NCBI GenBank assembly: GCA_046497275.1
Contig: JAWOFX010000053.1
Coordinates: 22,124 to 54,123 of the forward strand
DNA length: 32,000 nucleotides
From: Promethearchaeia archaeon
GTDB lineage: Archaea > Asgardarchaeota > Lokiarchaeia > Sigyniarchaeales > SOKP01
Reading direction: 5' to 3'
Below are positions 1,869 to 20,739 of the stretch, piece after piece (the stretch's first letter is position 1; every line of letters begins with the position of its first letter). Both the position numbers and the translations under genes were made by a program. The notes beneath the pieces are model-generated. The model made no database searches. It saw nothing but the letters and a program-made list of their open reading frames with translations, and had not been told where the DNA came from.

Positions 1869-2882
1869 ATGAAACTTTACCTAGTAGATAAAGGTGAACT
1901 GAAAGAAATCAATAAACCAGTGTTTTCAACTGGAGATGTGTATATCTTAGACAATAATCATACAATTTATGTTTGGATTGGAAGTAAATGTAGTGTTGAT
2001 GAAAAGACTTCTGGAGCAGCTCAAGCACGAACATTGGATCAAGAACGCGGGGGTGCTGCCAAAATAATTACTATAGATCAAGGACAAGAAACAGATGATT
2101 TCCTTAAATTAATAGCTGATATGGGAGCGATGAAGATCGTAAACAAAAACATCGCAAAAACTATGTTAAAGGATGTATACACTGGAGATTTTGCTGGATT
2201 TACTGAACATAAAAATGTTCTCTATCGTGTTAGCTCCGAAGAATTTGAAGATATTAACACGATGAAGATGGTACAAGTTCCTTACTCTGAGGACTCTCTG
2301 GATTCCGAAGATTGTTTTGTTATGGATTTAGGAACAAAAGTTTATGTATGGCAAGGAAATGCATGTAATGTTAAGGAAAAGGTGAAAGCGGGACAATGGG
2401 CAAGAAAGATAGATGTTGATAGAGCAGGATCTCAAAATGAAGAGATTTTTGAGGAAGGAGATGATATGCGATTCATTGAAGCTCTGAAAAAAGGAACAGA
2501 TTATAAAGAATCTGATGCGGTTCAGTTAGAAGCTGAATCAGTGATGGAAGAAGAACCTCCTGAACAAAAAATCGAGCGTGAACATAAATCAGAGATTCGA
2601 GATGCAGAACCAGAAGAAAGAGTGTCTATAAAGCCAGAAGCACCTAAGATTAAGGAATCTGCTGCTTCAAAAGCCAGTCCTGGAATACCTGGTCGACGGG
2701 ATGATTCCATCCTAACTATAGAAAAGACAGAGGGTAGGAGAGTATGTCCTAACTGTGGAGAAGAGAACCCGCATATGTTACATGAGAGCATCGATAAAAG
2801 CAATGTTATAATGGATTATCCACGCGTGTATGGAAAGAAGTATAAGTGTGGCTCTTGTGGAACCGAATGGCGTGAAAAGTAA
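1869..2882 (+). CDS. Asgard two-domain gelsolin-family protein with charged linker and C-terminal Zn ribbon
   Basis: Two gelsolin repeats: STGDVYILD...IYVWIGSKCSVDEK...DQGQETDDFL and LDSEDCFVMDLGTKVYVWQGNACNVKEK...EEGDDMRF. These are followed by a Glu/Pro/Lys-rich linker and CPNC...CGSC. SD-like GAGGA lies just upstream. Confidence 0.9.
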   Translation: MKLYLVDKGELKEINKPVFSTGDVYILDNNHTIYVWIGSKCSVDEKTSGAAQARTLDQERGGAAKIITIDQGQETDDFLKLIADMGAMKIVNKNIAKTMLKDVYTGDFAGFTEHKNVLYRVSSEEFEDINTMKMVQVPYSEDSLDSEDCFVMDLGTKVYVWQGNACNVKEKVKAGQWARKIDVDRAGSQNEEIFEEGDDMRFIEALKKGTDYKESDAVQLEAESVMEEEPPEQKIEREHKSEIRDAEPEERVSIKPEAPKIKESAASKASPGIPGRRDDSILTIEKTEGRRVCPNCGEENPHMLHESIDKSNVIMDYPRVYGKKYKCGSCGTEWREK

Positions 2883-5764: not shown

Positions 5765-6400
5765 TTATAAATCCAATTTATCTTTCCAATTATCTTTCTT
5801 TTCTAATTTCTTAGTTTTAGTCCCTTCTTCGGGATAGTTTTTTGTTGAGCCTATATTTTCAGGTCTACTTGCTGTTGAATAATCCATAATCTCTGAACTT
5901 GTGTCTTGATTTGGCGATAACATCTGCATCATGCCTCCAGTTAAGCTGGATTTTTGCTTGCCGGTAGCTTTTCTATAAATATATTTAGATACAAAATATA
6001 TAACTGAAAAGCTTAATGAAAATAAGAGATAAACAGCTACCCATCCATCTCCGAATAGAGGTACTTTAAAAGGTAAAATTCCCGAATTATATGGAGCATA
6101 AATTAAACCTAATAAAGCAAATATACCAAGAAATATCACGCATCTAACACATAAAGGAACCATTTGCTTTTTCATCATATCCTTAGTTAATTCCATTGAT
6201 TCTGATTGGATCTGTTGCATCATTTGGGGATCTCCAATGAGTTGAGCGTTTTTCATTCTTTCTTGAATATTTCTCGCTTTTTCTTGTAGTTTACTCATCT
6301 CTTCTCTGTTTAATCCAAAGAAATGATTGAATAATAAGCCAATAAGAAACATTCCTAATGTTATAAAAAAGATTTGAAGTATAATTCCACCGACTGCCAT
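5765..6400 (-). CDS. EMC3/TMCO1 (DUF106, Oxa1-superfamily) membrane insertase homologue
   Basis: TM1, then a Met/Gln-rich cytosolic coiled-coil hairpin (EMSKLQEKARNIQERMK...MMQQIQSESMELTKDMMKKQMVP), TM2, LPFKVPLFG loop and TM3 GWVAVYLLFS, matching the DUF106 layout. Confidence 0.8.
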   Translation of the reverse strand: MAVGGIILQIFFITLGMFLIGLLFNHFFGLNREEMSKLQEKARNIQERMKNAQLIGDPQMMQQIQSESMELTKDMMKKQMVPLCVRCVIFLGIFALLGLIYAPYNSGILPFKVPLFGDGWVAVYLLFSLSFSVIYFVSKYIYRKATGKQKSSLTGGMMQMLSPNQDTSSEIMDYSTASRPENIGSTKNYPEEGTKTKKLEKKDNWKDKLDL

Positions 6401-7721: not shown

Positions 7722-9533
7722 ATGATAAAACAAGCGAGAGAAGAGTTCTTTAAAAGAAGAGAACGGTTTTTATCTCATGAATATAAATCCAGTTTAAGAT
7801 TAGTATTGAGTTATTTGTGGGATTACAAATATCATTTCATTTTAGTTGTGTTCTTGGGAATAATCCAATCTATATTATTTTTATCCCTTCCCGTACTTGT
7901 TGGACCAGCATTAGATATATTGGTTGATCCATCTAGCTTGATTAGCAATGTTTTACCTTTGTTCCTCTTAATGATAAGTTTGCAAATTAGTGTGGGATTT
8001 GTTTTCGCCATTCGAATTTGGACGAATAGATGGGTTGGTACGAATATTATTTATAAATTAAGAAACGATTTATTTTCAACTATCCAATTAATGAGTTTTT
8101 CCTGGCTTGATGAGCATAAAACGGGAGATTTGCTTTCAAGAACTACGAGCGATGTAAATTTACTAAAGGAATTTTTGGGTAATAATTTGCAGCTATTCTT
8201 CAGACAAGCATTTACATTTATACTCAGTTTTTTAATTTTATTTCTAATAAATGTTGAATTGGCCTTATATATTATAGGCGTCTCTCCAGCGCTATTTTAT
8301 GTATTATTTAAATTTCGTAAGAAGATGAGACCAGTCTTTAAAAAATCAAGGGAGACTTATTCAGATTTGACTCATAAAATTCAAGAAAATGTTCAGGGTA
8401 TTAAGGTGGTGAAATCATTTTCGAGAGAAGACCATGAAATCAAAGAATTCACTAAAATTAATGATGATTACTATGAAGATTCTATGAATATAATTACCCT
8501 ACAAGCAACTTTCGATCCTATAATCTATTTAATTGATAATATTGCATTCTTGTTGGTCATTCTTGTTGGAGGAACTCTAGTTCTAAGAGGAAGAATGACA
8601 TTTGGAGAATTATTTTCGTTCATATTAGTTATGAATTTTTCTGTTGAACCACTTTATTTTGTAGCTAGGTTTTTAGCAAATATGCCCCAAATTAGCGAAA
8701 CAAGTGAGAGAGTTGCTCATATTTTGAAATCTGAAATCGATGTTAAAGAAAGTCTCGCAAAGAAGGAAATGCCTCCAATTAAAGGCAAGGTTGAGTTTAA
8801 TAATGTGTCATTTTCTTATGATTCAGATGGCAAGCAAAGAGTCTTAAAAGATGTTAATATTGCAGTTAATCCAGGTGAAACCATTGCAATTTTAGGCGCA
8901 ACTGGATCTGGAAAATCTACATTGATTAAATTAATCCCTCGTTTTTATGAGGTGACAGAGGGAGAAATTTTGATCGATGGAGTTAATATCAAAGATGTAT
9001 CTTTCAAATCATTACGAAAACAAATTGGCTATGTGTCTCAAGATCGTATCCTATTTTCTCGGAGTATTAAAGAGAATATTGCGTTTGGAAAAAGAGATAT
9101 TAATGAAAGAGCAATAAAAAATGCGGCTAAAATTGCTCATATTGATGAATTTATTGAAGATGAATTACCTAAAAAATATGAAACCAAAGTAGGAGAACGA
9201 GGAATGACATTAAGTGGAGGGCAAAAACAGCGTGTTGCTATTGCGAGAGCTCTTGCGGTTAAGCCACGCATACTTCTTTTGGACGATTGCTTCAGTTCAG
9301 TTGACGTTGACACGGAGTATGAGATTCAGAGATTATTAAAAGATGTAATTGAAGATACCACTACATTCTTAATTACACAACGCCTAAGCACAGTAAGACA
9401 TGCAGATAGAATTATGGTTATGGAAAATGGAAGAATTTCACAGTTAGGAAGTCATCAAGATTTAATGAACCAAGAAAATGGGATATACAAAAAGCTTTAT
9501 TTAACCTTAAAGGTGGAGGAAAGATCTCAATGA
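7722..9533 (+). CDS. Heterodimeric ABC exporter, subunit with degenerate catalytic residues (TM287/TmrB-like)
   Basis: TMD plus NBD. Walker A GATGSGKS and signature LSGGQKQ are present. Walker B LLLDD has Asp for the catalytic Glu, and ITQR has Gln for the switch His. Confidence 0.92.
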   Translation: MIKQAREEFFKRRERFLSHEYKSSLRLVLSYLWDYKYHFILVVFLGIIQSILFLSLPVLVGPALDILVDPSSLISNVLPLFLLMISLQISVGFVFAIRIWTNRWVGTNIIYKLRNDLFSTIQLMSFSWLDEHKTGDLLSRTTSDVNLLKEFLGNNLQLFFRQAFTFILSFLILFLINVELALYIIGVSPALFYVLFKFRKKMRPVFKKSRETYSDLTHKIQENVQGIKVVKSFSREDHEIKEFTKINDDYYEDSMNIITLQATFDPIIYLIDNIAFLLVILVGGTLVLRGRMTFGELFSFILVMNFSVEPLYFVARFLANMPQISETSERVAHILKSEIDVKESLAKKEMPPIKGKVEFNNVSFSYDSDGKQRVLKDVNIAVNPGETIAILGATGSGKSTLIKLIPRFYEVTEGEILIDGVNIKDVSFKSLRKQIGYVSQDRILFSRSIKENIAFGKRDINERAIKNAAKIAHIDEFIEDELPKKYETKVGERGMTLSGGQKQRVAIARALAVKPRILLLDDCFSSVDVDTEYEIQRLLKDVIEDTTTFLITQRLSTVRHADRIMVMENGRISQLGSHQDLMNQENGIYKKLYLTLKVEERSQ

Positions 9534-11398
9534 GTCCAGATCAATCTAATCAAGAAAATGAAAAATATAATATTAAGACTCTCTACATAATAAAGCGTTT
9601 GTTTAAATATATAGGATCTAAAAATCGAAAATATATTTTGCCGTTAGTTATAATCATTATTTTGAATATTTTGTTTAATTGGTTCTCTCCTCTCATCTTT
9701 CGATATTTGATTGATGAGGGATTGGGTGGATATTTTGGAACGGGAAGTGGTGGAGAAATAGAAATCATTATCACCGCAGGAGTGCTTTATTCTGTTGTCA
9801 CGATTTTAAGCGTGTTAACGAGAATCGCACAAGGATTTATAATACAAAAATTAGCAACAATTACAATGTTTAACTTAAGATATGAATTATTTACAAAATT
9901 CCAACTATTAGGATTAGATTATCATGACAATCCTGAAAAAACAGCAGGGAAAAAAGTATCTTATTTAACTAATGATGTCAATACTCTACAAGAGCTCATC
10001 AATAGTGGATTATTGGCAGTAATAGGCAATTTTTTTCTTATATTCGGTGCTGTAGTTTTTATGTTGATTTTAAGTCCTCAATTAACTCTAGTTGCCTTTC
10101 TTATTATTCCAATTATTTTTGTAGTTGGGGGCGTTGTTTTAGGCAAAGCCAGAAAATATTTTCAAGAATTAAGAGAACGAGTCTCAATAGTTACGAGTAC
10201 GTTAGATGAGTCTATAATGGGAATGAGAACTATACAATCTTTTGCTGTAGAGGAGGAAAGTTACGAAGAGTTTAATAACGCCACTTTAAAAGAACGAGAA
10301 ATAACCTTAAAATCAGCAAAATTATTTGCGATTATTCCTGGATTAGCCTTATTAATTATAAGTTCGGGGTTAATGGCATTATTTTTCACCGGAGGAATTT
10401 TAATTAGAGATGGAATAATTACAGTTGGCACATTAGTGGCTTTCATATTTTATATTTTCCAATTTTTTGAACCAATCATTGCGCTAATAGGGTTTTTTAC
10501 TTTACTACAAAACTCCATAGCAGCAGGAGCTCGGATGATCAATCTTTTAGATTTAGAGCCATCTATAAAAGAAAATAAAAATATTCAACAAATCGAAAAA
10601 ATAAGTGGAGAAATCAAATATAAAGAAGTTTCATTTCATTATGAAAAAGATCAACCCGTTTTGAAAAATATAATTGTCCATATTAAACCAGAAGAAAGAC
10701 TAGCCCTTGTTGGCTATACGGGAGCTGGAAAAAGTACTTTCATTAAATTACTCAGTAGGTTTTACGATCCAAATGAAGGGAGCATATATCTTGAAGGAAA
10801 AAATTTAAAAGTGTTGTCTTTAGACATAATTAGAAAAAATATGGGAATTGTTTTGCAGGAAAATTTTCTCTTTTCTACAACTATAATGGAGAATATACGA
10901 TATGGAAAACTCGAGGCATCAGATGAGGAAGTGATCGAAGCAGCCAAAAAAGTGAGTGCTCACGAATTTATAATGGAATTAGAAAACGGATATGAAACCT
11001 TAGTTGGTGAGCGTGGAAATAGACTATCCGAAGGTGAGAGACAATTAATCGCATTCGCAAGAGCATTGATAGCAGATCCCCCTATATTAATTTTAGATGA
11101 AGCAACCTCATCAATTGATCCGTATAGTGAATTACTTATACAACAAGCCTTAGAAACCCTATTAAAGGGCAGAACAAGCATATCTATCGCTCATAGATTA
11201 TCTACGATAATTAATTCTGACAGAATTTTGGTATTAGAAAAAGGTAAAATCATAGAAGAAGGATCTCATAAGGAACTAGTAGATAAAGGAGAATTTTATA
11301 AACACCTATACGACATGCAATTTAAGGATCCGTTCAAAAAGGAAAAAATTGAAGATAAAATTTCTATCGATGATTTAGATGAAGAAATTTTATCTTAA
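9530..11398 (+). CDS. Heterodimeric ABC exporter, consensus-site subunit (TM288/TmrA-like)
   Basis: GYTGAGKS, ILDEATSSID and IAHR are intact; signature is non-canonical LSEGERQ; 4-bp ATGA overlap with the partner gene. Confidence 0.92.
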   Translation: MSPDQSNQENEKYNIKTLYIIKRLFKYIGSKNRKYILPLVIIIILNILFNWFSPLIFRYLIDEGLGGYFGTGSGGEIEIIITAGVLYSVVTILSVLTRIAQGFIIQKLATITMFNLRYELFTKFQLLGLDYHDNPEKTAGKKVSYLTNDVNTLQELINSGLLAVIGNFFLIFGAVVFMLILSPQLTLVAFLIIPIIFVVGGVVLGKARKYFQELRERVSIVTSTLDESIMGMRTIQSFAVEEESYEEFNNATLKEREITLKSAKLFAIIPGLALLIISSGLMALFFTGGILIRDGIITVGTLVAFIFYIFQFFEPIIALIGFFTLLQNSIAAGARMINLLDLEPSIKENKNIQQIEKISGEIKYKEVSFHYEKDQPVLKNIIVHIKPEERLALVGYTGAGKSTFIKLLSRFYDPNEGSIYLEGKNLKVLSLDIIRKNMGIVLQENFLFSTTIMENIRYGKLEASDEEVIEAAKKVSAHEFIMELENGYETLVGERGNRLSEGERQLIAFARALIADPPILILDEATSSIDPYSELLIQQALETLLKGRTSISIAHRLSTIINSDRILVLEKGKIIEEGSHKELVDKGEFYKHLYDMQFKDPFKKEKIEDKISIDDLDEEILS

Positions 11399-11544: not shown

Positions 11545-11898
11545 TTATGTGGGGAATTCATACCCACATTTTTTACAGATTGTTTTTTTTGCATATATCT
11601 TTAAACCGCCCTGTTGGTGGAGGACGTGAGACTTATCTTCAACTTCGTTAAAATCCGTGCTACCGCAAGAGGGGCAAACTCTCCGACCCTCAATTGGGGG
11701 CTTTTCTTTTAATTTTTCCTCCTCTTCTTGCTTTTCAACCACAGCTGATGGTTTGACAGAACCTTGTTCTGTTTTTGAGGCTCTAGAAATTACACTGTTT
11801 CCAGAAGCCCCACCAGAATTAAGAAGTTTATCCAATTTAGTATTTATAGTCTCAAGTAGATCAATTACTTTCTCTTCAAATTCAGACATATTAATCAA
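11545..11898 (-). CDS. Small protein: N-terminal short coiled coil, flexible linker, C-terminal Zn ribbon paralogous to the gelsolin tail
   Basis: FEEKVIDLLETINTKLDKLL helix, G/S-rich linker, then EGRRVCPSCG...DKSHV...IYAKKTICKKCGYEF. Start may be the second Met (MSEFEE). Confidence 0.8.
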   Translation of the reverse strand: MINMSEFEEKVIDLLETINTKLDKLLNSGGASGNSVISRASKTEQGSVKPSAVVEKQEEEEKLKEKPPIEGRRVCPSCGSTDFNEVEDKSHVLHQQGGLKIYAKKTICKKCGYEFPT

Positions 11899-12036: not shown

Positions 12037-14373
12037 CTAATTTCTTTGTTTTACTGGTACAAAAATCTTAAAAAAATTCTGTTTTACGTTTATCCCACCT
12101 TGAAACTTTACAATAATTTTGTTACCTGAAAGAGTTGTAGCGTGAAGATTGTTATATGAATTACCAAATCCATTAAAAAGAACGATTTCTCCATCGCTCA
12201 AATTTGAATCTAACGTTTTTGAATCCTTAATCCGTAAGTACATTCCTGGTTTAATATCATCTAAACTATTTACATTATGTATACTTGAGAAAGAATAGGT
12301 TCCAGCATAATTCTCCACCACGTAATCATACAATTGTTTTAAGGGTTTTTTTTGGATTTCGATTATCTCTCCTTTAATACCTCGTTTTGCAATTAGTAAA
12401 GCAGCAATCGCATGATCTACAAATCCTTTACTCTTAACCTCGCTTACGAGTTCACCATTTTGTAATCTAAATAACGCTTCTTTTGTAGTTTTGAATTCAT
12501 CTACTAAAAAAATATTTGGAGGCTCAAAACTAGGTTTAGATAATTGTTTTTGATCTTCTTTCTCATTTGTTTCTATGGTATTATAATCAGAAATTATACA
12601 TTCATTATTCTCACAAGGGATATTAAAGTATTCAATTAAGAAATCGATGATGAAACTGGAACCAGGACCGTGTCCTACAAATATTTTATTAATAAAATCT
12701 TTCTCGTCACCGAGAAATAAGTCTAATTCTTCCCGAAGTTGTTTTTTCGCACTTTTTTGCGTTTTCGTATTTTTAATAGTGTCCTTGAGATTCACATACC
12801 ATAAGGATGGAAGTTCGGAAGGTTCGATTAGGCAAAACCCGAAATGTCTCGTCCCTGGATCAACAGAAAAAATTTTGTCTGTTTGGTCGAAATTAAAAAG
12901 ATTGATATCTGCTCTCCCATTTGAGATTTTCATCAAGGAATTAAAAAACTTTTCAAACTTTTGATTATTTACTTGGAGAAAAAAGACATTAGCTTGAGAT
13001 TGATATAACACTTCTATATCATATTTTTCAATAAGGTCATAAATTTCATGATAATTCTCTACCTTTACTAATACATCTTGATGAGGTATAATTTTAATTA
13101 ATCTCACTTTCTCAATTGCTTTTGCAACTGCTTGAGCAATGTCATCTTCATTCTTACCTGAAAGGATATCCACAAGGAGCCCATCAAGATGGAAAGCTTC
13201 ATAGGCTGTGGTGGCTCCTAAAATATCATACAATCTCTTATTTTTTTTACCTTGACGAGTTATAGTTATTTGTTTTTTAAATCGGGGAGCAATACGTACT
13301 CTAGCAGAATTATATCTTGCTTTAGTTTTTTTATTTATGGTAATTATTCCTTTCACTTTTGACTTAGTTATTTTAAAATTAATAAGAGTCTCAAGGTTTT
13401 CCTTAATAAAATCAAATTGTACATTTCCTAATACCTGAATAATAATTTCATTTTTCTCAATGTAATAGTCAAACGAGGGAATAATTTTTTTAAGCTTTTC
13501 AAGGATTTCAATTCCTGTTTTAAATTTTACTGGATCTTCAATTTCTATATAGAATTCTTTTCGTGGTTGAATTTCTGATAAAAGACTATCAATTTTAGGT
13601 GAGAAGAACTTTCCTTTATAATATTTTGTTCCCAAATCGGATTTCAATTCTATATTAAGTGAAGCTTGGACGATTTGTCCTTCAAACGCTTCTTGTAGAG
13701 GTTTTCCTTTTAGGGAAAATAATCTTCGTACACTTACTTTATCCGAAATATAACTATTAGATTTTAAAGTACCAGAAAAAATTCCAATATTAATTAATTC
13801 ACCAATTCCTTTTTTTATATCATACCCGAGAATAATGAATCCAAGATCTTGCTCATAATTTTCTCTATGCCTAACATAGAGACAGATCTTCTCTATTAAT
13901 TGCTCAATCCCAAAAAGTTCTTTTGCTGAAGTTTCTATAATAGGGTATTTTCTATCAGTTATCTTTCTTAGGTCTTTTTTGATCCTAGATAAATTAGCAT
14001 TATTAAGATCCATCTTAGTAGCGGCTATGATAATGGGTATTTCATTTTCAATAGCTTTTTCATATAACCAATAAGTTCGCGCTTGAAAACCTTCATTACC
14101 AGCTATTACTAAAACTAAAAGATCAGCGAATTCAAGTCCTAAAGCAATACTTCCTTTAAAATCAGCATGACCAGGACTATCTAAAAAATTAAGTAATATG
14201 TTTTTTTGCTTGAGAACAAATTGAATAACTTTCAAACTGACTGTTGTGCCATGATTGAGTTCATAATCAAGGTTATCAGGAAATTTTCCGATTATTGTGC
14301 TAATTAATGAACTCTTACCATGTTGAGAATGCCCCGCGACAAGAACATTAATAATCCTCTGTTTTTTTTCCAT
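12037..14373 (-). CDS. EF-G-like translational GTPase fused to YqgF/RuvX-like RNase H-fold domain and an unassigned C-terminal domain
   Basis: G1 GHSQHGKS, switch I ELNHGTTV, G3 DSPGH, G4 TKMD, G5 TSAK. EF-G domain III-like LEKLKKIIPSF...IIIQVLGNVQFDFIKENL; domain IV-like YNSARVRIAP; domain V-like FFNSLMKISNGRADINLF. Nuclease motifs SVDPGTRHFG, FVGHGPGS, LVDEFKTTKEA and VDHAIAALLI. Confidence 0.8.
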   Translation of the reverse strand: MEKKQRIINVLVAGHSQHGKSSLISTIIGKFPDNLDYELNHGTTVSLKVIQFVLKQKNILLNFLDSPGHADFKGSIALGLEFADLLVLVIAGNEGFQARTYWLYEKAIENEIPIIIAATKMDLNNANLSRIKKDLRKITDRKYPIIETSAKELFGIEQLIEKICLYVRHRENYEQDLGFIILGYDIKKGIGELINIGIFSGTLKSNSYISDKVSVRRLFSLKGKPLQEAFEGQIVQASLNIELKSDLGTKYYKGKFFSPKIDSLLSEIQPRKEFYIEIEDPVKFKTGIEILEKLKKIIPSFDYYIEKNEIIIQVLGNVQFDFIKENLETLINFKITKSKVKGIITINKKTKARYNSARVRIAPRFKKQITITRQGKKNKRLYDILGATTAYEAFHLDGLLVDILSGKNEDDIAQAVAKAIEKVRLIKIIPHQDVLVKVENYHEIYDLIEKYDIEVLYQSQANVFFLQVNNQKFEKFFNSLMKISNGRADINLFNFDQTDKIFSVDPGTRHFGFCLIEPSELPSLWYVNLKDTIKNTKTQKSAKKQLREELDLFLGDEKDFINKIFVGHGPGSSFIIDFLIEYFNIPCENNECIISDYNTIETNEKEDQKQLSKPSFEPPNIFLVDEFKTTKEALFRLQNGELVSEVKSKGFVDHAIAALLIAKRGIKGEIIEIQKKPLKQLYDYVVENYAGTYSFSSIHNVNSLDDIKPGMYLRIKDSKTLDSNLSDGEIVLFNGFGNSYNNLHATTLSGNKIIVKFQGGINVKQNFFKIFVPVKQRN

Positions 14374-14553: not shown

Positions 14554-15378
14554 ATGGAATCTACTAAAAAAGATGAAGAATGGTTAATTCCAAAATCAGA
14601 GATCTCATTTGAATATCTTACCCATTTCAATCGAAATATGATGATATTGCATTTAATACAAGGAATAATTATGGTTATCTTTGGGTTATTACCGTTTTTA
14701 CAGTATCCAGCAAATATATATACCACTTATCCCAATTATTTTGCTGGTGTAATACCGACCGCAGAGATTTTATTCGAATTCAGTGCCGTGGGAGCATTAG
14801 TTGGAGTATTTCTATTGCTTTCAGCACTAGCTCATTTCCTTATTACCTATCCTCTAAATAAAATGTATGTGAGAGATTTGAAGAAAGGAATAAATAAAGT
14901 ACGTTGGTTTGAATATGCCTTATCAAGTTCGGTGATGATTGTTTTAATAGGGATTTTTTTTGGGATTCGTGATTTCTGGTTGTTATTTACGATATTTGTT
15001 TCTAACGCGTTAATGAATATGGGTGGATTGTTGATGGAACAAATGAGCGTCTATACAAGGAGACTCGGAGAAAAACCTAAATGGGGTGCATATTATGTTG
15101 GTGTAGTTGCAGGTGCTGTCCCTTGGATTGTAATCACTGCTTTTTTCATTGTCGCTGGTTTAAATGCTGCAGGAGAAATACCTTTGTTTGTTTATATAAT
15201 TTACATAGTCCAATTAGTGTTCTTTAACACATTCGCTATAAATATGATCCTTCAATATAAGAAAATTGGGAAGTGGAAGGATTATCTTTACGGTGAGCGA
15301 GTATACATATTATTAAGTCTTATATCGAAAACATTTCTCGCATGGCTAGTATTCGCTGGTGTGTTTCAACCTGCTTAA
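14554..15378 (+). CDS. Heliorhodopsin
   Basis: Seven TM segments. FNRNMMILHLIQ (H33), SALAHF (H94), GINKVRWFEYALSSSVM (counter-ion E120), MGGLLMEQ, and LSLISKTFLAW (retinal Lys K259) match heliorhodopsin rather than type-1 motifs. Confidence 0.95.
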   Translation: MESTKKDEEWLIPKSEISFEYLTHFNRNMMILHLIQGIIMVIFGLLPFLQYPANIYTTYPNYFAGVIPTAEILFEFSAVGALVGVFLLLSALAHFLITYPLNKMYVRDLKKGINKVRWFEYALSSSVMIVLIGIFFGIRDFWLLFTIFVSNALMNMGGLLMEQMSVYTRRLGEKPKWGAYYVGVVAGAVPWIVITAFFIVAGLNAAGEIPLFVYIIYIVQLVFFNTFAINMILQYKKIGKWKDYLYGERVYILLSLISKTFLAWLVFAGVFQPA

Positions 15379-16003: not shown

Positions 16004-16462
16004 CTAATCTCTTCTTTTTCCTTCGATCTCTTCAAAATAATCTAATATTGACTCTTTAATCTCAATCGCAGGATAAATTAATCTTGATTTGTACACGTAG
16101 TCTAAAGCATCATCCCATGTCCAATTGGGATGTTCCTTTAGCAACCATGCCATTATAATACCCCCACTTCGTGAGATGCCCATCGCACAATGTACCAGAA
16201 CCTTTCCTTTTTCAATATGCTCATCAATAAATTCTAAAATATCTTTTAAATATTTATGAGGAGGGTACCAATCATCAGGAAAACCTCGAAAAAGATAATC
16301 AAACCCCAATGGAACGGGATTATATAAATTATCTTCCATTAAATTTACTATTGCTGTGATACCAATCTTCTTAAATTTTTCAAAGTTCAAACGAGGCCAA
16401 TAGGCACCTATATACAAATTCTTATGAACTTTATAAATTTGATCTAATTCTGGCTGCTTCAT
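16004..16462 (-). CDS. Dual-specificity phosphatase (CX5R family)
   Basis: VLVHCAMGISRSG active site, LYIG and ITAIVNL N-terminal motifs, FPDD general-acid loop. Confidence 0.92.
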   Translation of the reverse strand: MKQPELDQIYKVHKNLYIGAYWPRLNFEKFKKIGITAIVNLMEDNLYNPVPLGFDYLFRGFPDDWYPPHKYLKDILEFIDEHIEKGKVLVHCAMGISRSGGIIMAWLLKEHPNWTWDDALDYVYKSRLIYPAIEIKESILDYFEEIEGKRRD

Positions 16463-16492: not shown

Positions 16493-16891
16493 TTATTCTT
16501 TAATTGCTTTCAAATCTCTACTTGCAATTAGATTTGCCTCATCATCAACTATTTTTTCTATCAATATATCCCCCATTTTAAGTGGAGCTTTTACAACAGT
16601 GTTAGCGATTTTATCTAAAGCCTCCTCTAATTTTTGTTTTGGAATCGCTTGATCTACTCTTACGGGAACTAAGGGAAGAAATCCATTTTCAACTCGAATT
16701 GTAGTGGTCAAAACACGTTTTGGTTCATAAAATTCTTGTTTCGCGTATTCTAATCCTCTTCTACAAGTATACCCTTCGAAATTTACCTCTCCTTCTGGGT
16801 TTTCCTTCACTTTAATTTCACAACCAGTAGGACAGACAATGCAACGAATGGTTTTTATTACTTCGGGATCACCACTAGTTTCTGTACTCAT
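16493..16891 (-). CDS. DUF1667-type small metal-binding protein of GlpA-like operons
   Basis: CIVCPTGC, GYTCRRG and PKRVLTTT motifs; 4-bp overlap with the upstream gene. Confidence 0.85.
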   Translation of the reverse strand: MSTETSGDPEVIKTIRCIVCPTGCEIKVKENPEGEVNFEGYTCRRGLEYAKQEFYEPKRVLTTTIRVENGFLPLVPVRVDQAIPKQKLEEALDKIANTVVKAPLKMGDILIEKIVDDEANLIASRDLKAIKE

Positions 16892-18195
16892 GATTGATCC
16901 TCCTCATCTATTAATGGTTCTGGTTGGGGTACCACATCTATTATTAATTCCTTACATGTAGGACTAATTTCTAAGCTACTCATATCTAACTTAAATTCAA
17001 TCATTTCGCTTGGTATTACATAACGTTTCCTTCGTGTGTAGATTACTTTATTTGTCTCATCTTTGATTTGAATTTGAATTCTCCGGTCAGGACTCTTGAC
17101 TCGAAAAGTAAAAATAACTTCTTTAGAGAGATCATTAATATTAATTAGATCTGGTTTAACATAGTTAACATTTTCTCCGGGGAGACAGAGAATTCTTTTG
17201 ACTTTTTCCACTTTTTTTTTATACCTCTCTTCTATATATTCCACTGCTTTTTTTCCGGCTCTTTTTGCTTCAGCAGATACAAGATCAACTAAATCATGGA
17301 CCTGTAAGACATTTCCACAAGCAAAAACACCCTCAAGAGTTGTTTCAAGATTATTGTCTACAATGGGACCCCCCATATTGGAAATTTCAGCTCCCGCTTG
17401 TTTAGTTAATTCATTTTCCGGAATTAATCCCACAGAGAGTAAAAGGGCATCGCATTCAATAAATCTGTCTGTTCCTATAATTCTATCAAAATTCCTATCT
17501 ACTCTGCTTATCGTCACACCTTTTAATCTGTCTTTCCCATGAATTTTAGTGACTGTATAACTAGTAATTAATGGGATGTTATAATCTTCTAAACATTGAA
17601 CTTGATTTCTGATAAGACCACTTACATAAGGTTGAATTTCAACTACAGCTTTTACTTTGCAACCCTCCCAGGTCAATCGTCTTGCCATAATCATTCCAAT
17701 ATCACCACTTCCTAAAATTACATATGTTCTTCCAGGAAGATATCCTTCTATGTTTACAAATCTTTGAGCTTGGCCTGCCGTGTAAATTCCTGCGGGTCTA
17801 AAACCAGGAATATTAATGGCTCCTCTCGTGCGTTCTCGACATCCCATCGCAAGAATAATTGCTTTAGCAGTAATTTCAATGATTCCTTCATTTTTATTTA
17901 TTGCATAGATCTTTTTTTTAGGAGTGATTTCAAGTACCATTGTGTCTAATTTGTAAGGAATATTCAATTCTTCAACTTCATTTATAAATCTTTGAGCATA
18001 TTCCGGTCCCGAGAGTTCCTCATCAAATTCTGTAACTCCAAATCCTACATGAATACATTGTAATAATATCCCACCGAGCTCAATATCTCGCTCTAGTATA
18101 AGTGCTTCGTATCCTGCTTTTTTCACTTCAATCGCAGAAGCTAATCCAGCAGCTCCTCCTCCAATCACAGCTACATCTGTCTCATATTTATTCAT
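16888..18195 (-). CDS. NAD(P)/FAD-dependent oxidoreductase (pyridine nucleotide-disulfide family), partner of GlpA-like enzyme
   Basis: IGGGAAG, GGILLQCIHVGFG, MGCRER, ILGSGDIG and FACGNVLQVHDLVD motifs; 4-bp overlaps at both ends. Confidence 0.9.
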   Translation of the reverse strand: MNKYETDVAVIGGGAAGLASAIEVKKAGYEALILERDIELGGILLQCIHVGFGVTEFDEELSGPEYAQRFINEVEELNIPYKLDTMVLEITPKKKIYAINKNEGIIEITAKAIILAMGCRERTRGAINIPGFRPAGIYTAGQAQRFVNIEGYLPGRTYVILGSGDIGMIMARRLTWEGCKVKAVVEIQPYVSGLIRNQVQCLEDYNIPLITSYTVTKIHGKDRLKGVTISRVDRNFDRIIGTDRFIECDALLLSVGLIPENELTKQAGAEISNMGGPIVDNNLETTLEGVFACGNVLQVHDLVDLVSAEAKRAGKKAVEYIEERYKKKVEKVKRILCLPGENVNYVKPDLININDLSKEVIFTFRVKSPDRRIQIQIKDETNKVIYTRRKRYVIPSEMIEFKLDMSSLEISPTCKELIIDVVPQPEPLIDEEDQS

Positions 18196-19676
18196 AATTC
18201 CGTTGAACCCTCCTTAAATTCTTTTAATCGAACATCTTTTGTTTTAGCCATCAATAGATTTGTATCTTCCCCTTTTTTTGTGATTGCTTGGTATGGTAAA
18301 TGAAGCTCTCTGGATAATATCTCCATTACACGAGGACGACAGAATCCTCCTTGGCATCTGCCCATACCCGGTCTACACCGAAATTTTATTCCATCAACAG
18401 TTGTTGCTCCAACAGGAGAATGGATAGCATTTAAGATCTCTGCTTCTGGGATTGTTTCGCATCTACATATAATTCGTCCCCAGGCAGGGTTCTCTTTGAC
18501 TTTTTTATCTAACTCTTTTTTAGTCATATCAGCAAGGCGTTCTGGCTTGGGTCTATTAGGATTATAGTCCTCTTTTTCTTTTAACTGAACACCTAATAAT
18601 TCCAAGAAATCTAAGACTTTTTCTGCGATCGCTAAAGATGATGTTAATCCTGGAGATAAAATACCTGCTACATTAATGAATCCATAGATATCAGTATTAT
18701 CAATTATAAAATCATATGTATCAGGTACAGCACGAAGTCCAGCAAAATTTCGAATAGACGCCCTTAAAGGCAATTTTGGCACCAGATCCCTTCCACCTTC
18801 TAAAACTTCTTTTAAACCAGCTGTTGTCGTTGCAGTATCTTCTTTATCTGTAATATTTTGAGCGTTAGGTCCCGCAAAAGTATTTCCGTGTAATGTTGGA
18901 CAAACAAGAATACCTTTTGAGATCTTCGTGGGAACTGGAAATAAGATTTTATTCAATTGAAGCATATTTCGATCAAATAACACATATTCTCCCTTTCTAG
19001 GCATAATATCAAAATAATCTAACCCTAACATCTTAGAAATCTTTCCTGCATAAATTCCAGCACAATTAATTACATTTCGCCCTTTAAATTCCCCTCTTTT
19101 GGTGGTAACAGTGAATACATAATCTCTATGATTAATCTTAATTACTTCATTATTTCTAAAAAATTTCACGCCATTCATAGCTGCATTTTCAGCCAATGCA
19201 AATGTGAATTCATATGGACTGACGAGCCCTGCAGTTGGGGCATGCAGAACACCTATAACATCATCTGTGATATTTGGCTCCATTTTTTTAATCCTATCCT
19301 TATCAAGAATGAGTTCTAATCCATGAATTCCATCTTCAATTCCTTTTTTTCGATCTTCATCTAAATCTTTTATTTGACCGGGTTCTACCGCAACCACAAA
19401 AGATCCAATTCTTTTAAATGGAAAATTTAGTTCTTTAGCTGCTTGAGTAAATAACTTATTTCCACGAATACATAAATCTCTTTTAACAAATCTTCTATCA
19501 GAAGCGTATCCTGCATGCACCACTCCAGAATTCCCTTTAGTTGTCCCCATTGATATATCCGCTTCTTTCTCTAAGAGACACACTTTCAAATCATATTTAC
19601 ATAATGCTCTCGCTATACTGCATCCGATAACTCCGCCGCCAATGATGATTATATCATATTCTTCTGATGATGACAT
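18192..19676 (-). CDS. FAD-dependent oxidoreductase with BFD-like [2Fe-2S] tail (glycerol-3-phosphate dehydrogenase GlpA / L-2-hydroxyglutarate oxidase-like)
   Basis: IGGGVIG, TTKGNSGVVHAG, PRKGEY, FAGLRA and SPGLTSS motifs; C-terminal ICRCE...GMGRCQGGFC. Confidence 0.85.
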   Translation of the reverse strand: MSSSEEYDIIIIGGGVIGCSIARALCKYDLKVCLLEKEADISMGTTKGNSGVVHAGYASDRRFVKRDLCIRGNKLFTQAAKELNFPFKRIGSFVVAVEPGQIKDLDEDRKKGIEDGIHGLELILDKDRIKKMEPNITDDVIGVLHAPTAGLVSPYEFTFALAENAAMNGVKFFRNNEVIKINHRDYVFTVTTKRGEFKGRNVINCAGIYAGKISKMLGLDYFDIMPRKGEYVLFDRNMLQLNKILFPVPTKISKGILVCPTLHGNTFAGPNAQNITDKEDTATTTAGLKEVLEGGRDLVPKLPLRASIRNFAGLRAVPDTYDFIIDNTDIYGFINVAGILSPGLTSSLAIAEKVLDFLELLGVQLKEKEDYNPNRPKPERLADMTKKELDKKVKENPAWGRIICRCETIPEAEILNAIHSPVGATTVDGIKFRCRPGMGRCQGGFCRPRVMEILSRELHLPYQAITKKGEDTNLLMAKTKDVRLKEFKEGSTEL

Positions 19677-20328: not shown

Positions 20329-20739
20329 TTACCAAAAAGCTTTTTTAAATTTTTTAACTGTGTCTTGTAAGGAATTTTTTATCTTTTCTTCAAATTCAGA
20401 AAAAATCGAAACATCTCCATCCCATTTCTCCAATTTATCAGAATAAACTTCAAAAAATTTATCAGAGATATTAGAAAGTTCTTGATTTATTCGTTTATCT
20501 TTTTCTTCAAGATCCGCATTAGCAACAAATAAAATTTCATTTTTTTTTATGATGCTAAATTTGATATCGCTTAATTCAAAACTTGAAATCCCTCCATCTG
20601 CGATTTGCTCAGCGAATTTGTTAATTGCAGACATGATTGCTCCGAATAATTGCTCATTTACTTTAGGGTTATAAACACGACTGTACATAGTAATTCCATC
20701 ACTACTTAATATCCAAAGATCTCTGAGTATTTTTCCCAT
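20329..20739 (-). CDS. Stand-alone longin-like domain protein (Asgard eukaryotic-signature type)
   Basis: LWILSSDGITMYS strand-turn-strand, helix LFGAIMSAINKFAEQI, three-strand sheet, helix ELSNISDKFFEVY and WDGDVSIFSEF tail. This is the pattern of Asgard longin/adaptin sigma-like domains. Confidence 0.75.
   Translation of the reverse strand: MGKILRDLWILSSDGITMYSRVYNPKVNEQLFGAIMSAINKFAEQIADGGISSFELSDIKFSIIKKNEILFVANADLEEKDKRINQELSNISDKFFEVYSDKLEKWDGDVSIFSEFEEKIKNSLQDTVKKFKKAFW

Follow-up and report, generated by a model that had tools for sequence, protein, structure and literature searches.

An archaeal EF-G-like translational GTPase fused to an apparently intact YqgF/RuvX-type nuclease domain

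The fusion of an EF-G-like translational GTPase (trGTPase) with a YqgF/RuvX-type domain is real and conserved in archaea, and we have analysed one such protein, P0001, encoded in a 32,000-nucleotide stretch of DNA (hereafter the window) from a Promethearchaeia archaeon. From its N-terminus to its C-terminus, P0001 reads as a trGTPase G domain, domains II and III, a short domain IV, domain V, a YqgF/RuvX RNase H-fold domain and a basic SH3-like barrel. A sequence-only reading of the window had singled out this gene, and had proposed a ribosome-docking, GTP-gated nuclease for rRNA maturation, for quality control or rescue of stalled ribosomes, or a defensive ribotoxin. The explanation that we place first, and to which we give about half of our confidence, is that the fusion is a GTP-gated nuclease acting on ribosome-bound RNA; we infer, for the fusion protein, binding to ribosomes, gating by GTP and activity as a nuclease. 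More tentatively, and with clearly less confidence, it can be read as a translation-factor mimic with its own nuclease: an endonuclease under GTP control that would cleave mRNA or rRNA while sitting at the factor-binding site. If this were true, the protein would be the missing nuclease of ribosome quality control, or of the no-go-decay type, in some archaea; it would also be the first case of a catalytic effector joined covalently to a trGTPase.

Every translational GTPase characterised so far works, to our knowledge, through binding and a change of conformation, and we know of none with an enzyme domain able to cut RNA. Elsewhere, docking together with cleavage needs separate proteins, such as Nob1 and eIF5B, or Cue2/SmrB on collided ribosomes. 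An EF-G-shaped protein with an intact YqgF site would be a new kind of link between RNA cleavage and ribosome docking that is checked by GTP. The hosts of the family are Asgard archaea, the closest known relatives of eukaryotes, and the hyperthermophilic Methanopyrus, whose proteins should suit biochemistry and cryo-EM. Since the gene is accessory (see below), naturally occurring genomes with and without it can be compared at loci that are otherwise identical. A full-text literature search, in which most subscription-journal papers lay outside the scope, returned no description of the fusion.

Gene structure and domain architecture

The gene is a single open frame on the minus strand (Table 1); the plus-strand reading of the same interval was rejected, as it contains stops throughout. 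Its start is secure, because only nine codons separate it from an upstream stop and the N-terminus is in line with those of all homologues. The host genome carries the gene as a single copy and also encodes a canonical aEF2, so the fusion protein is an extra factor. The whole protein is basic (pI 8.9), and its AF2 model has a pLDDT of 76.5.

Table 1. Features of the fusion gene, in positions of the window and residues of P0001
Feature	Residues	Positions	Strand	Basis
Full CDS of P0001, 778 aa and stop	1-778	12037..14373	minus	single open frame
G domain, without G' insert	1-172	13858..14373	minus	Pfam GTP_EFTU, motif tallies, hhalign to LepA/EF-G
Codon of catalytic His69	69	14167-14169	minus	
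Domain II, beta-barrel	176-260	13594..13848	minus	all-beta in model; inside LepA hhalign range
Domain III, alpha/beta	270-341	13351..13566	minus	TetO profile match; LepA hhalign to residue 341
Short domain IV-like module	342-431	13081..13350	minus	predicted structure only
Domain V-like module, LMKxSxGxA motif	432-486	12916..13080	minus	model alignment to EF-G
Low-confidence linker, EF-G-like body to nuclease	487-499	12877..12915	minus	pLDDT <50 at 486-497
YqgF/RuvX-type RNase H-fold domain (predicted)	500-668	12370..12876	minus	relatives' Pfam RuvX, hhalign, fold matches
Putative catalytic triad codons	D505; E626; D653	12859-12861; 12496-12498; 12415-12417	minus	
Variable insert within nuclease domain	591-617	12523..12603	minus	alignment; 18% mean identity; pLDDT <50
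C-terminal region: helical connector, then SH3-like barrel (704-778)	669-778	12040..12369	minus	pLDDT 72-87

The translational GTPase body

Pfam GTP_EFTU (PF00009) matches residues 6-167 of P0001 with an E-value of 7.6e-28 (97.8 bits; cut-off 26.5), and the G-domain motifs are AGHSQHGKSS (G1), T44 (G2), DSPGH (G3), TKMD (G4) and SAK (G5). Thr replaces the canonical Asn in G4, where 30 of the 34 family sequences have TKMD; G14, H15, G19, K20, S21, D65, G68, H69, K120, D122 and S149 are invariant in all 34. Profile alignment with hhalign to E. coli LepA is colinear across G-II-III (E 1.7e-23; profile columns 10-341 against LepA 3-365), and that to EF-G ends at residue 169, ahead of G'. The G domain without a G' insert that the sequence-only reading had recognised in residues ~1-170 is thereby borne out.

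Domains II, III, a shortened IV and V, which had been aligned to EF-G by eye, were also recovered, the last two only from the predicted structure. The profile of the 170-500 stretch matches TetO (4v6v) 265-407 over residues 193-331 (E 1.5e-5), and the Methanopyrus member P0125 matches EF-G_D2 with 31.4 bits (cut-off 27). Domain III is modelled with the element order beta-alpha-beta-beta-alpha-beta, and a weak Pfam RF3_C match falls in this region of P0001. The domain IV-like module is basic (median pI 9.6) and is predicted to consist of four strands followed by alpha-beta-alpha-beta. In VIA, the model up to residue 427/428 aligns with residues 4-612 of EF-G, i.e. up to the end of domain IV, in many ribosome-bound EF-G structures, and the alignment extends to model residue 471/474 and EF-G residue 658/672, within domain V. 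The LMKxSxGxA motif of the domain V-like module is in register with LRSLTKGRA of EF-G, the hhalign of domains IV-V being not significant (E 0.34); the same module has a weak EFG_C match in P0125 and SBDS_C matches in P0095 and P0122. The profile of the domain IV-V region returned chance Mx1 matches only when searched against PDB sequences. As a whole, the P0001 model matches aEF2 6u43 in Foldseek with an E-value of 1.3e-26, and EF-G, aEF2 and Snu114 in VIA with Z 33-34. The order G, II, III, IV, V thus appears to be that of the five-domain factors, and structural inference supports a ribosome-factor body of EF-G type whose GTPase centre is probably intact.

Within the trGTPases, P0001 falls below every curated cut-off tested, i.e. 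those for EF-G, aEF2, LepA, TetM, BipA and IF2. It scores 34.8 bits against a cut-off of 659.4 for TIGR00484 (EF-G), 69 against 533.9 for TIGR01393 (LepA), 73.4 against 775 for tet_protect, 49.6 against 757 for TypA, 38.4 against 467 for prfC, 76.5 against 424 for IF-2 and 61.7 against 242 for selB; aEF-2 (TIGR00490) does not appear in the list of the 25 best-scoring families for the protein. No LepA_C domain (PF06421) was found in Pfam scans of P0001 and its relatives. By sequence, G-II-III is closest to LepA, BipA, the Tet-protection proteins and IF2 rather than to EF2 or Snu114; the top PDB sequence match is 2ywe (LepA), and LepA also makes up the majority of the nearest outgroup proteins. 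Since all the curated trGTPase cut-offs are missed, we read the fusion family as a separate trGTPase subfamily.

The YqgF/RuvX-type nuclease domain

The four motifs on which the YqgF assignment had first been based (VDPGTRHFG, VGHGPG, VDEFKTTKEA and VDHAIAALLI) all stand at the residues named for them, and D505, G567/G569/G571, E626, D653 and H654 are invariant in the 34 sequences. Of the acidic pair D625/E626 that had been put forward, only the second holds as a candidate catalytic residue, because D625 is Asn in four of the 34 sequences. In YqgF, the triad consists of an Asp on beta1, a Glu at the end of beta5 and an Asp in alpha3, and the RNase activity of the Deinococcus radiodurans enzyme is impaired by D22A and abolished by E106A or D122A (PMC9601230). 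The AF2 model places D505 on beta1, E626 at the end of strand 620-624 and D653 in helix 653-662. No other segment of the protein is as well conserved as residues 618-668, which hold two of the three carboxylates (81% and 51% identity; the G domain has 65% and 44%), and the triad is invariant even between clades that are only 31-35% identical; together, this is the pattern expected for an active site.

With the insert-free clades, hhalign to E. coli YqgF covers 117 columns with all four motifs in register (E 5.1e-5), while that of the whole C-terminal part covers the last two motifs only (E 0.068). Three relatives exceed the Pfam RuvX (PF03652) cut-off of 29.2 bits: P0095 (32.4 bits) and P0121 (30.7) match end to end, P0122 (31.1) over a C-terminal stretch. 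P0123 (23.4) and P0125 (18.2) stay below it. P0001 itself scores 14.6 bits over model positions 88-128 only, because the insert at residues 591-617 breaks the alignment, and its putative RuvX assignment rests on homology to the relatives above the cut-off. This insert of 27 residues belongs to the Loki clade and is missing in the Odin-type and Methanopyrus clades; neither it nor the C-terminal region 669-778 with its SH3-like barrel had been noticed in the sequence-only reading.

That residues 500-665 would take up an RNase H-like fold agrees with the Foldseek and VIA matches of the model, which are to RuvC, RuvX 7ess, YrrK 1vhx (Z 6.5, 21% identity), MOC1 and the YqgF domains of Tex/Spt6; AFDB gave YqgF entries and entries named 'pre-16S rRNA nuclease'. 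The fold by itself does not distinguish YqgF from kinase-type (ASKHA) half-domains, which have it as well (PanK-III, Z 8.8), and the catalytic half (residues 626-668) has pLDDT <50 in both predictions. When the C-terminal part was folded alone, its pLDDT was 69.5 with the conserved residues 626-692 disordered, and the whole-protein fold is equally weak there. Searched against PDB sequences, the profiles of the C-terminal part and of the insert-free nuclease domain gave no RuvX, only weak matches to kinases, Pelota and RuvC-N; an ESM Atlas feature search with residues 495-778 gave no usable match, and when stand-alone homologues of the nuclease domain were sought, only fragments of the fusion family came up. 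An identity with RuvC was rejected, as hhalign to E. coli RuvC spans 19 columns of strand 1 only and the strand equivalent to beta4 ends in the invariant G-x-G-x-G, without the catalytic Glu that RuvC has there. Structural inference thus supports a YqgF-type nuclease domain in which the published triad is intact, and which is apparently active.

Whether the domain cuts, and what it cuts, can also be read in two other ways. It is unlikely, in our view, that the protein is a ribosome-associated GTPase with a non-cutting YqgF domain, i.e. an assembly, hibernation or remodelling factor whose RNase H-fold module is only RNA-binding or structural, as in Tex and Spt6. The YqgF domains of these two proteins are structural neighbours (Z 6.3-6.7), the fold motif is common to Pelota, eRF1 and Balon-type A-site factors, and the three carboxylates of YqgF are too few for chelating two metal ions (PMC9601230); however, the invariance of the triad and the outstanding conservation of the segment that holds two of its members speak for catalysis, and the same triad supports the RNase activity of D. 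radiodurans YqgF (PMC9601230).

Rather more doubtful is a nuclease for DNA branches (Holliday junctions, flaps or R-loops) that works off the ribosome, with the GTPase body as a regulatory switch or clamp. Junction cleavage is reported for some YqgF homologues (PMC9601230, PMC11466669), and resolution of such structures for the mycobacterial and Helicobacter pylori RuvX; the first-strand motif IDPGTR is RuvC-like, an RNase H-fold core followed by an SH3-like barrel is reminiscent of integrases, and one partial Odinarchaeota copy has been auto-named 'Holliday junction resolvase RuvX' by NCBI. Yet the N-terminal 490 residues have the architecture of a ribosome factor, including the His that is activated by the sarcin-ricin loop, the likeness to RuvC is confined to the short strand-1 alignment described above, and the loci examined show no conserved neighbours with a role in recombination or repair.

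The C-terminal barrel is basic (median pI 9.9). In VIA, residues 213-283 of the C-terminal part match the integron cassette protein 3g1j (Z 7.0) and the Csk SH3 domain (Z 5.9), which suggests an SH3-like barrel that may bind nucleic acid.

Distribution, loss and gene neighbourhood

The concern that the fusion might be a chimera of one assembly is dispelled by about 95 full-length homologue clusters from Lokiarchaeia and Hermodarchaeota, together with deeply divergent copies (31-35% identity) in Odinarchaeota/Asgardarchaeum and Methanopyrus, as the fusion is conserved across deep archaeal lineages. Within the Asgard archaea, the gene is present in 36 of 400 genomes and is missing from relatives that are 98-100% complete; a genome of the same genus has the identical syntenic site with the gene cleanly missing, and in one MAG it has decayed. 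Apparent 'split gene' forms were rejected, P0126 being cut by a contig end and P0269 with its upstream ORF being this decayed copy. The gene is therefore accessory, and having been lost by close relatives it cannot serve an essential core step.

The genes around it are housekeeping or transport genes, and orthologues of 64% and 82% identity share the syntenic housekeeping block, in agreement with vertical inheritance and loss. There is no fixed partner gene across the loci examined. The downstream gene for a 114-aa zinc-ribbon protein, although itself conserved, was rejected as an operon partner, because other genes intervene in one relative and the two are not adjacent in the Odin-type clade. 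In Methanopyrus, the gene lies in an operon-like run with genes for a dCTP deaminase and a metallo-beta-lactamase-fold protein.

These observations bear on the defensive ribotoxin of the sequence-only reading, i.e. a ribosome-targeting toxin or antiviral abortive-infection effector whose nuclease, triggered by a stress or infection signal, would attack ribosomes, tRNA or mRNA. Ribosome-directed nuclease toxins such as colicin E3 and RelE do exist, and patchy presence in close relatives along with a decayed copy is typical of accessory or defence genes. However, a PADLOC-DB 2.0 search with P0001 gave nothing at E <= 0.001, no defence island, immunity or antitoxin gene or mobile-element genes were found nearby in the loci examined, and both the stable housekeeping locus and the Methanopyrus operon-like run point away from defence. 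We therefore disfavour this explanation and regard it as improbable.

Proposed function

As a GTP-gated nuclease acting on ribosome-bound RNA, the protein might work as follows. The EF-G-like body in its GTP form would dock at the ribosomal factor-binding site, where the sarcin-ricin loop would position the invariant His69 for hydrolysis, a positioning of the catalytic His that is common to all trGTPases. Through docking, the nuclease, tethered behind domain V by a flexible linker of 13 residues, would reach RNA bound to the ribosome and cleave it with the three-carboxylate site D505/E626/D653, which probably binds Mn2+ or Mg2+; GTP hydrolysis would then release the factor.

The likeliest substrate would be the rRNA of immature or defective small subunits, either for end-trimming or for surveillance, and the next option would be mRNA or tRNA on stalled ribosomes. 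E. coli LepA is annotated in RefSeq as a 30S biogenesis factor, and E. coli YqgF processes pre-16S rRNA only within 70S ribosomes (PMC9601230), so relatives of both halves of the fusion act on late small-subunit particles. A core, essential role in rRNA maturation is disfavoured because of the accessory status of the gene, with its low genome count, clean absence and decay; the best explanation would be a dispensable quality-control or condition-specific factor.

Further points weigh against our main reading: such an accessory and patchy distribution is unusual for rRNA-maturation factors, and proteins of EF-G type can also act away from the ribosome, Snu114 matching the model as well as EF-G does. 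It is nevertheless very improbable that the protein is an EF-G-like GTPase on a non-ribosomal RNP, parallel to Snu114 with Prp8 and its RNase H-like domain in the spliceosome, as hinted at by the match to Snu114 (rmsd ~4 A over 440-470 residues, like EF-G and aEF2), by the Asgard host lineage and by a hypothesised composite nuclease site of the Prp8 RNase H-like domain and bound RNA (PMC9601230), for G-II-III is not nearest to EF2 or Snu114 and is without the G' insert that both carry, the family also occurs in Methanopyrus, and no other spliceosome-like components were seen nearby.

Comparison with known systems

The fusion shares its domain order with EF-G and aEF2 (its model superposes on aEF2 6u43 with Z 33.6 and an rmsd of 4.3 A over 449 residues), as well as a P-loop, the DxxGH motif that contains the catalytic His, and a sequence similar to LRSxTxGRA in domain V. 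It differs from them in being without G', in having a domain IV of ~90 rather than ~120-130 residues, in the G4 motif (TKMD, not NKxD), and in the extra 290 C-terminal residues of nuclease and barrel. LepA/EF4 is the best sequence relative across G-II-III, and both proteins are without G' and have a family-specific extension after domain V; however, LepA lacks domain IV and has LepA_C at its end, neither of which is true of the fusion. LepA also belongs to bacteria and organelles, where it is near-universal, while the fusion family is archaeal and patchy.

RelE, Rae1, SmrB/Cue2 and Nob1 need to be docked on the ribosome in order to cut mRNA or pre-rRNA, and cleavage by Nob1 is stimulated by eIF5B, a translational GTPase that acts in trans; we know of none of them that is covalently fused to a GTPase. 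The RelE, PIN/NYN and SMR nuclease folds are unrelated to RNase H, so that these proteins are analogues of the fusion by function and not by homology. Tex and Spt6, on the other hand, are themselves large RNA-associated proteins of several domains, in which other nucleic-acid-binding domains come after a YqgF-fold module. Their YqgF domains are not known to have the catalytic carboxylates or to be nucleases, in contrast to the invariant triad of the fusion, and the surrounding domains are wholly different. With YqgF/RuvX, finally, the fusion shares the RNase H-like fold, four motifs in register and the positions of the Asp/Glu/Asp triad. Its motif 1 is the RuvC-like IDPGTR, and its motif 2 is G-x-G-P-G rather than G-L-P; and whereas YqgF/RuvX is a stand-alone bacterial protein of ~140 aa, it is here a domain of a 778-aa archaeal GTPase.

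Reality of the fusion and its relatives

The GTPase-nuclease gene is a single unbroken frame of 778 codons on the minus strand of the window, and the plus strand over the same interval is closed by many stops. An upstream stop lies only nine codons before its ATG, and the N-terminus of the product (P0001) aligns with all homologues. The genome, which is 98.9% complete with ~30% G+C, carries one copy. Searching 5.8 billion proteins by word index recovered ~95 full-length clusters with 57-82% identity to P0001; all come from metagenome bins of Lokiarchaeota/Promethearchaeota or Hermodarchaeota, and 'GTP-binding protein' is the most that any is called. When 1.84 billion cluster representatives were searched exhaustively by HMM, only 12 proteins reached E <= 1e-30, of which ~6 are full-length 50%-identity clusters; below these 12 the scores drop abruptly to the level of generic translational GTPases (trGTPases). 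Divergent clusters, from sources named Odinarchaeota, Asgardarchaeum abyssi and Methanopyrus sp., share 31-35% identity with P0001 and are colinear with it along their entire length, and the Methanopyrus sp. members (RefSeq WP_457615329.1, four clusters) lie outside Asgard. The ~95 full-length clusters and the colinear divergent ones establish that the GTPase-YqgF fusion proposed in the sequence-only reading is real beyond one assembly. Its component parts are known families; to our knowledge, their union, with a catalytic effector domain attached to a translational GTPase, is undescribed. The sequence-only reading knew of no characterised protein joining both halves, and a full-text literature search found no paper describing a GTPase-YqgF fusion; databases likewise call the protein 'GTP-binding protein' only, or leave it unnamed.

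The GTPase body

Residues 6-167 match GTP_EFTU (E 7.6e-28), and among 34 sequences G14, H15, G19, K20, S21, T44, D65-x-x-G68-H69, K120/D122 and S149 vary little or not at all, with G4 reading TKMD in 30 of the 34, where a non-canonical Thr replaces Asn. In hhalign comparisons the family profile is colinear with E. coli LepA over G, II and III (E 1.7e-23), and its alignment to EF-G ends short of the G' insert; P0001 lacks this insert, as had been claimed. The mid-region profile matches TetO domains II-III (E 1.5e-5), and the Methanopyrus member matches EF-G_D2 over the cut-off and EFG_C weakly. The whole-protein AlphaFold2 model of P0001 (pLDDT 76.5; VIA Z 33-34) is matched in Foldseek by archaeal EF2, LepA, EF-G2, EF-G, TetM and Snu114 (E 1e-26 to 1e-23). 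Model residues 1..427/428 align to EF-G as far as ~612, the end of domain IV, and the stretch ending at 471/474 aligns to EF-G ..658/672, domain V. These ranges bear out the proposed order of II, III, a shortened IV and V, with IV and V assigned on predicted structure only. None of the NCBIfam equivalogs was approached (bits/cut-off: EF-G 35/659, lepA 69/534, tet 73/775, TypA 50/757, IF-2 77/424); LepA makes up most of the nearest outgroup proteins, followed by BipA, Tet-protection proteins and IF2, and a normal aEF2 is encoded elsewhere in the genome. We read the body as a separate trGTPase subfamily.

The YqgF/RuvX-type domain and the C-terminal barrel

P0001 itself matches Pfam RuvX over the last third only, at 14.6 bits (cut-off 29.2 bits), and a 27-residue variable insert (residues 591-617) interrupts its domain. 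Two insert-free divergent relatives exceed the cut-off with matches spanning RuvX from end to end, P0095 at 32.4 bits and P0121 at 30.7; a third divergent member, P0122, passes at 31.1 bits on a C-terminal stretch (model 75-127), and P0123 and P0125, the latter from Methanopyrus, score under it. The alignment of the insert-free profile with E. coli YqgF spans 117 columns (3-130 of 138, E 5.1e-5) and puts four motifs in register, i.e. D-x-G-T, the G-rich strand-4 turn, DE-x-x-[ST][ST]-x-EA and D-x-A-x-A-A; alignment with E. coli RuvC is confined to the first strand (19 columns). Structure searches point to an RNase H-like fold, with RuvC, RuvX (7ess), YrrK (1vhx), MOC1 and the YqgF domains of Tex and Spt6 as neighbours; because kinase-type (ASKHA) half-domains and the central domains of Pelota and eRF1, with a common motif, also match, the fold supports the YqgF assignment without discriminating. 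Taken together, these matches sustain the YqgF/RuvX assignment made earlier.

The YqgF active site comprises an Asp on beta1, a Glu at the end of beta5 and an Asp on alpha3, and in D. radiodurans YqgF the D22A substitution impairs RNase activity, while E106A and D122A abolish it (PMC9601230). The equivalents D505, E626 and D653, all previously picked out, are invariant in 34/34 sequences; D625, proposed beside E626, is Asn in 4/34. No other segment of the protein is as conserved as residues 618-668 (81% identity in the main clade and 51% to divergent clades; G domain, 65% and 44%), which have pLDDT below 50 in both models. Judged from sequence, triad invariance and this conservation argue for an active enzyme. 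A non-cutting module as in Tex and Spt6, both fold neighbours, is unlikely beside the invariant triad, and a DNA-branch nuclease acting off the ribosome, which the 19-column RuvC alignment hardly favours, is rather less probable still.

Residues 669-778, unmentioned in a domain map whose GTPase body and YqgF segment stand, form a helix and then a well-predicted SH3-like barrel (structural matches 3g1j, Z 7.0; Csk SH3, Z 5.9). The median pI of the barrel (9.9) and of domain IV (9.6) would fit nucleic-acid binding.

Distribution and genomic neighbourhood

The gene occurs in 36 of 400 species genomes of the phylum, namely that of the window, 33 of the 134 others in its family and one each in two other families. 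It is missing from several genomes of 98-100% completeness, even in the same genus. In the same-genus genome G277 the order of radical SAM, zinc-ribbon, dual-specificity phosphatase, DUF1667 and two FAD oxidoreductase genes is kept, and the GTPase-nuclease gene, the heliorhodopsin gene and two ABC exporters are absent between them (locus L031). In one Promethearchaeota MAG the customary syntenic block contains the gene in decayed form (L021, also L062): domain V is gone altogether, as is most of the end of domain IV, and the copy is split into an ORF of 426 aa, diverging after ~residue 414, and one of 251 aa, restarting at ~residue 481, with a scrambled C-terminus and no SH3-like barrel. Since orthologues 64-82% identical occupy the same block, the distribution fits vertical descent with repeated loss. 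The gene is accessory.

Features of the window and of loci in other genomes
Feature	Locus	Position	Strand	Remarks
GTPase-nuclease gene	window	12037-14373	-	
Heliorhodopsin gene	window	14554-15378	+	PF18761, E 4e-81; divergent neighbour
114-aa protein	window	11545-11898	-	conserved; acidic middle, C-terminal CxxC...CxxC zinc ribbon
ABC exporter gene pair	window	7722-11398	+	membrane and ATPase domains fused
DAO/BFD-[2Fe-2S] oxidoreductase, Pyr_redox_2 oxidoreductase, DUF1667	window	16493-19676	-	three-gene cluster
Dual-specificity phosphatase	window	16004-16462		after the three-gene cluster
Gelsolin-repeat protein	window	1869-2882	+	eukaryote-like; E 9e-29
Longin-domain protein	window	20329-20739	-	eukaryote-like; Fuz_longin_1 26.5 bits, barely over cut-off
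EMC3/TMCO1/YidC-like membrane protein	window	5765-6400	-	eukaryote-like
ARMT1-like (DUF89) gene	L017	10239-11144		Odin-type contig
ARMT1-like (DUF89) gene	L018	4395-5378		Odin-type contig
Three genes after GTPase-nuclease gene	L019	10229-11921		Methanopyrus sp.
Decayed GTPase-nuclease gene	L021	3721-5756		JARRLT010000029.1

The gene stands alone, with no fixed partner and no defence context: no neighbour is kept across clades, PADLOC gave no match, and no defence or mobile-element context was seen around it. A ribotoxin or defence effector, entertained in the sequence-only reading, is quite improbable. The 114-aa protein has 82% and 60% identity in two relatives, and its zinc-ribbon part has several paralogous matches in 240-420-aa ORFs of every Loki genome searched. 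The exporter pair recurs in the 82% relative, is absent at the G277 site and has other genes in its place in the 64% relative. The oxidoreductase/DUF1667/phosphatase block is kept in all Loki contexts examined, and its three-gene cluster resembles a gene set for an anaerobic glycerol-3-phosphate dehydrogenase. The ARMT1-like gene, adjoining or near the GTPase-nuclease gene, may owe its position to synteny within the lineage and not to a functional link. The three co-directional Methanopyrus genes (227-aa unknown, dCTP deaminase-like and small metallo-beta-lactamase-fold) have overlapping stops and starts, and the run headed by the GTPase-nuclease gene looks like an operon.

Possible function

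The architecture is conserved, and the catalytic residues are intact in both enzymatic halves. The EF-G-like body in its GTP form would dock at the ribosomal factor site, the tethered nuclease would cut ribosome-bound RNA, and hydrolysis through His69 would release the protein. A role in an RNP other than the ribosome, like that of Snu114, one Foldseek match among the ribosomal factors, is very improbable. For the ribosome-bound nuclease, the dispensability of the gene argues for a quality-control or condition-specific role, not a core maturation step. By analogy, rRNA trimming or surveillance may rank slightly above mRNA/tRNA cleavage on stalled ribosomes, because the bacterial relatives of the two halves, LepA and YqgF, both work on late small-subunit particles. 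For YqgF the setting is the 70S ribosome, outside which the E. coli enzyme does not cut pre-16S rRNA (PMC9601230).
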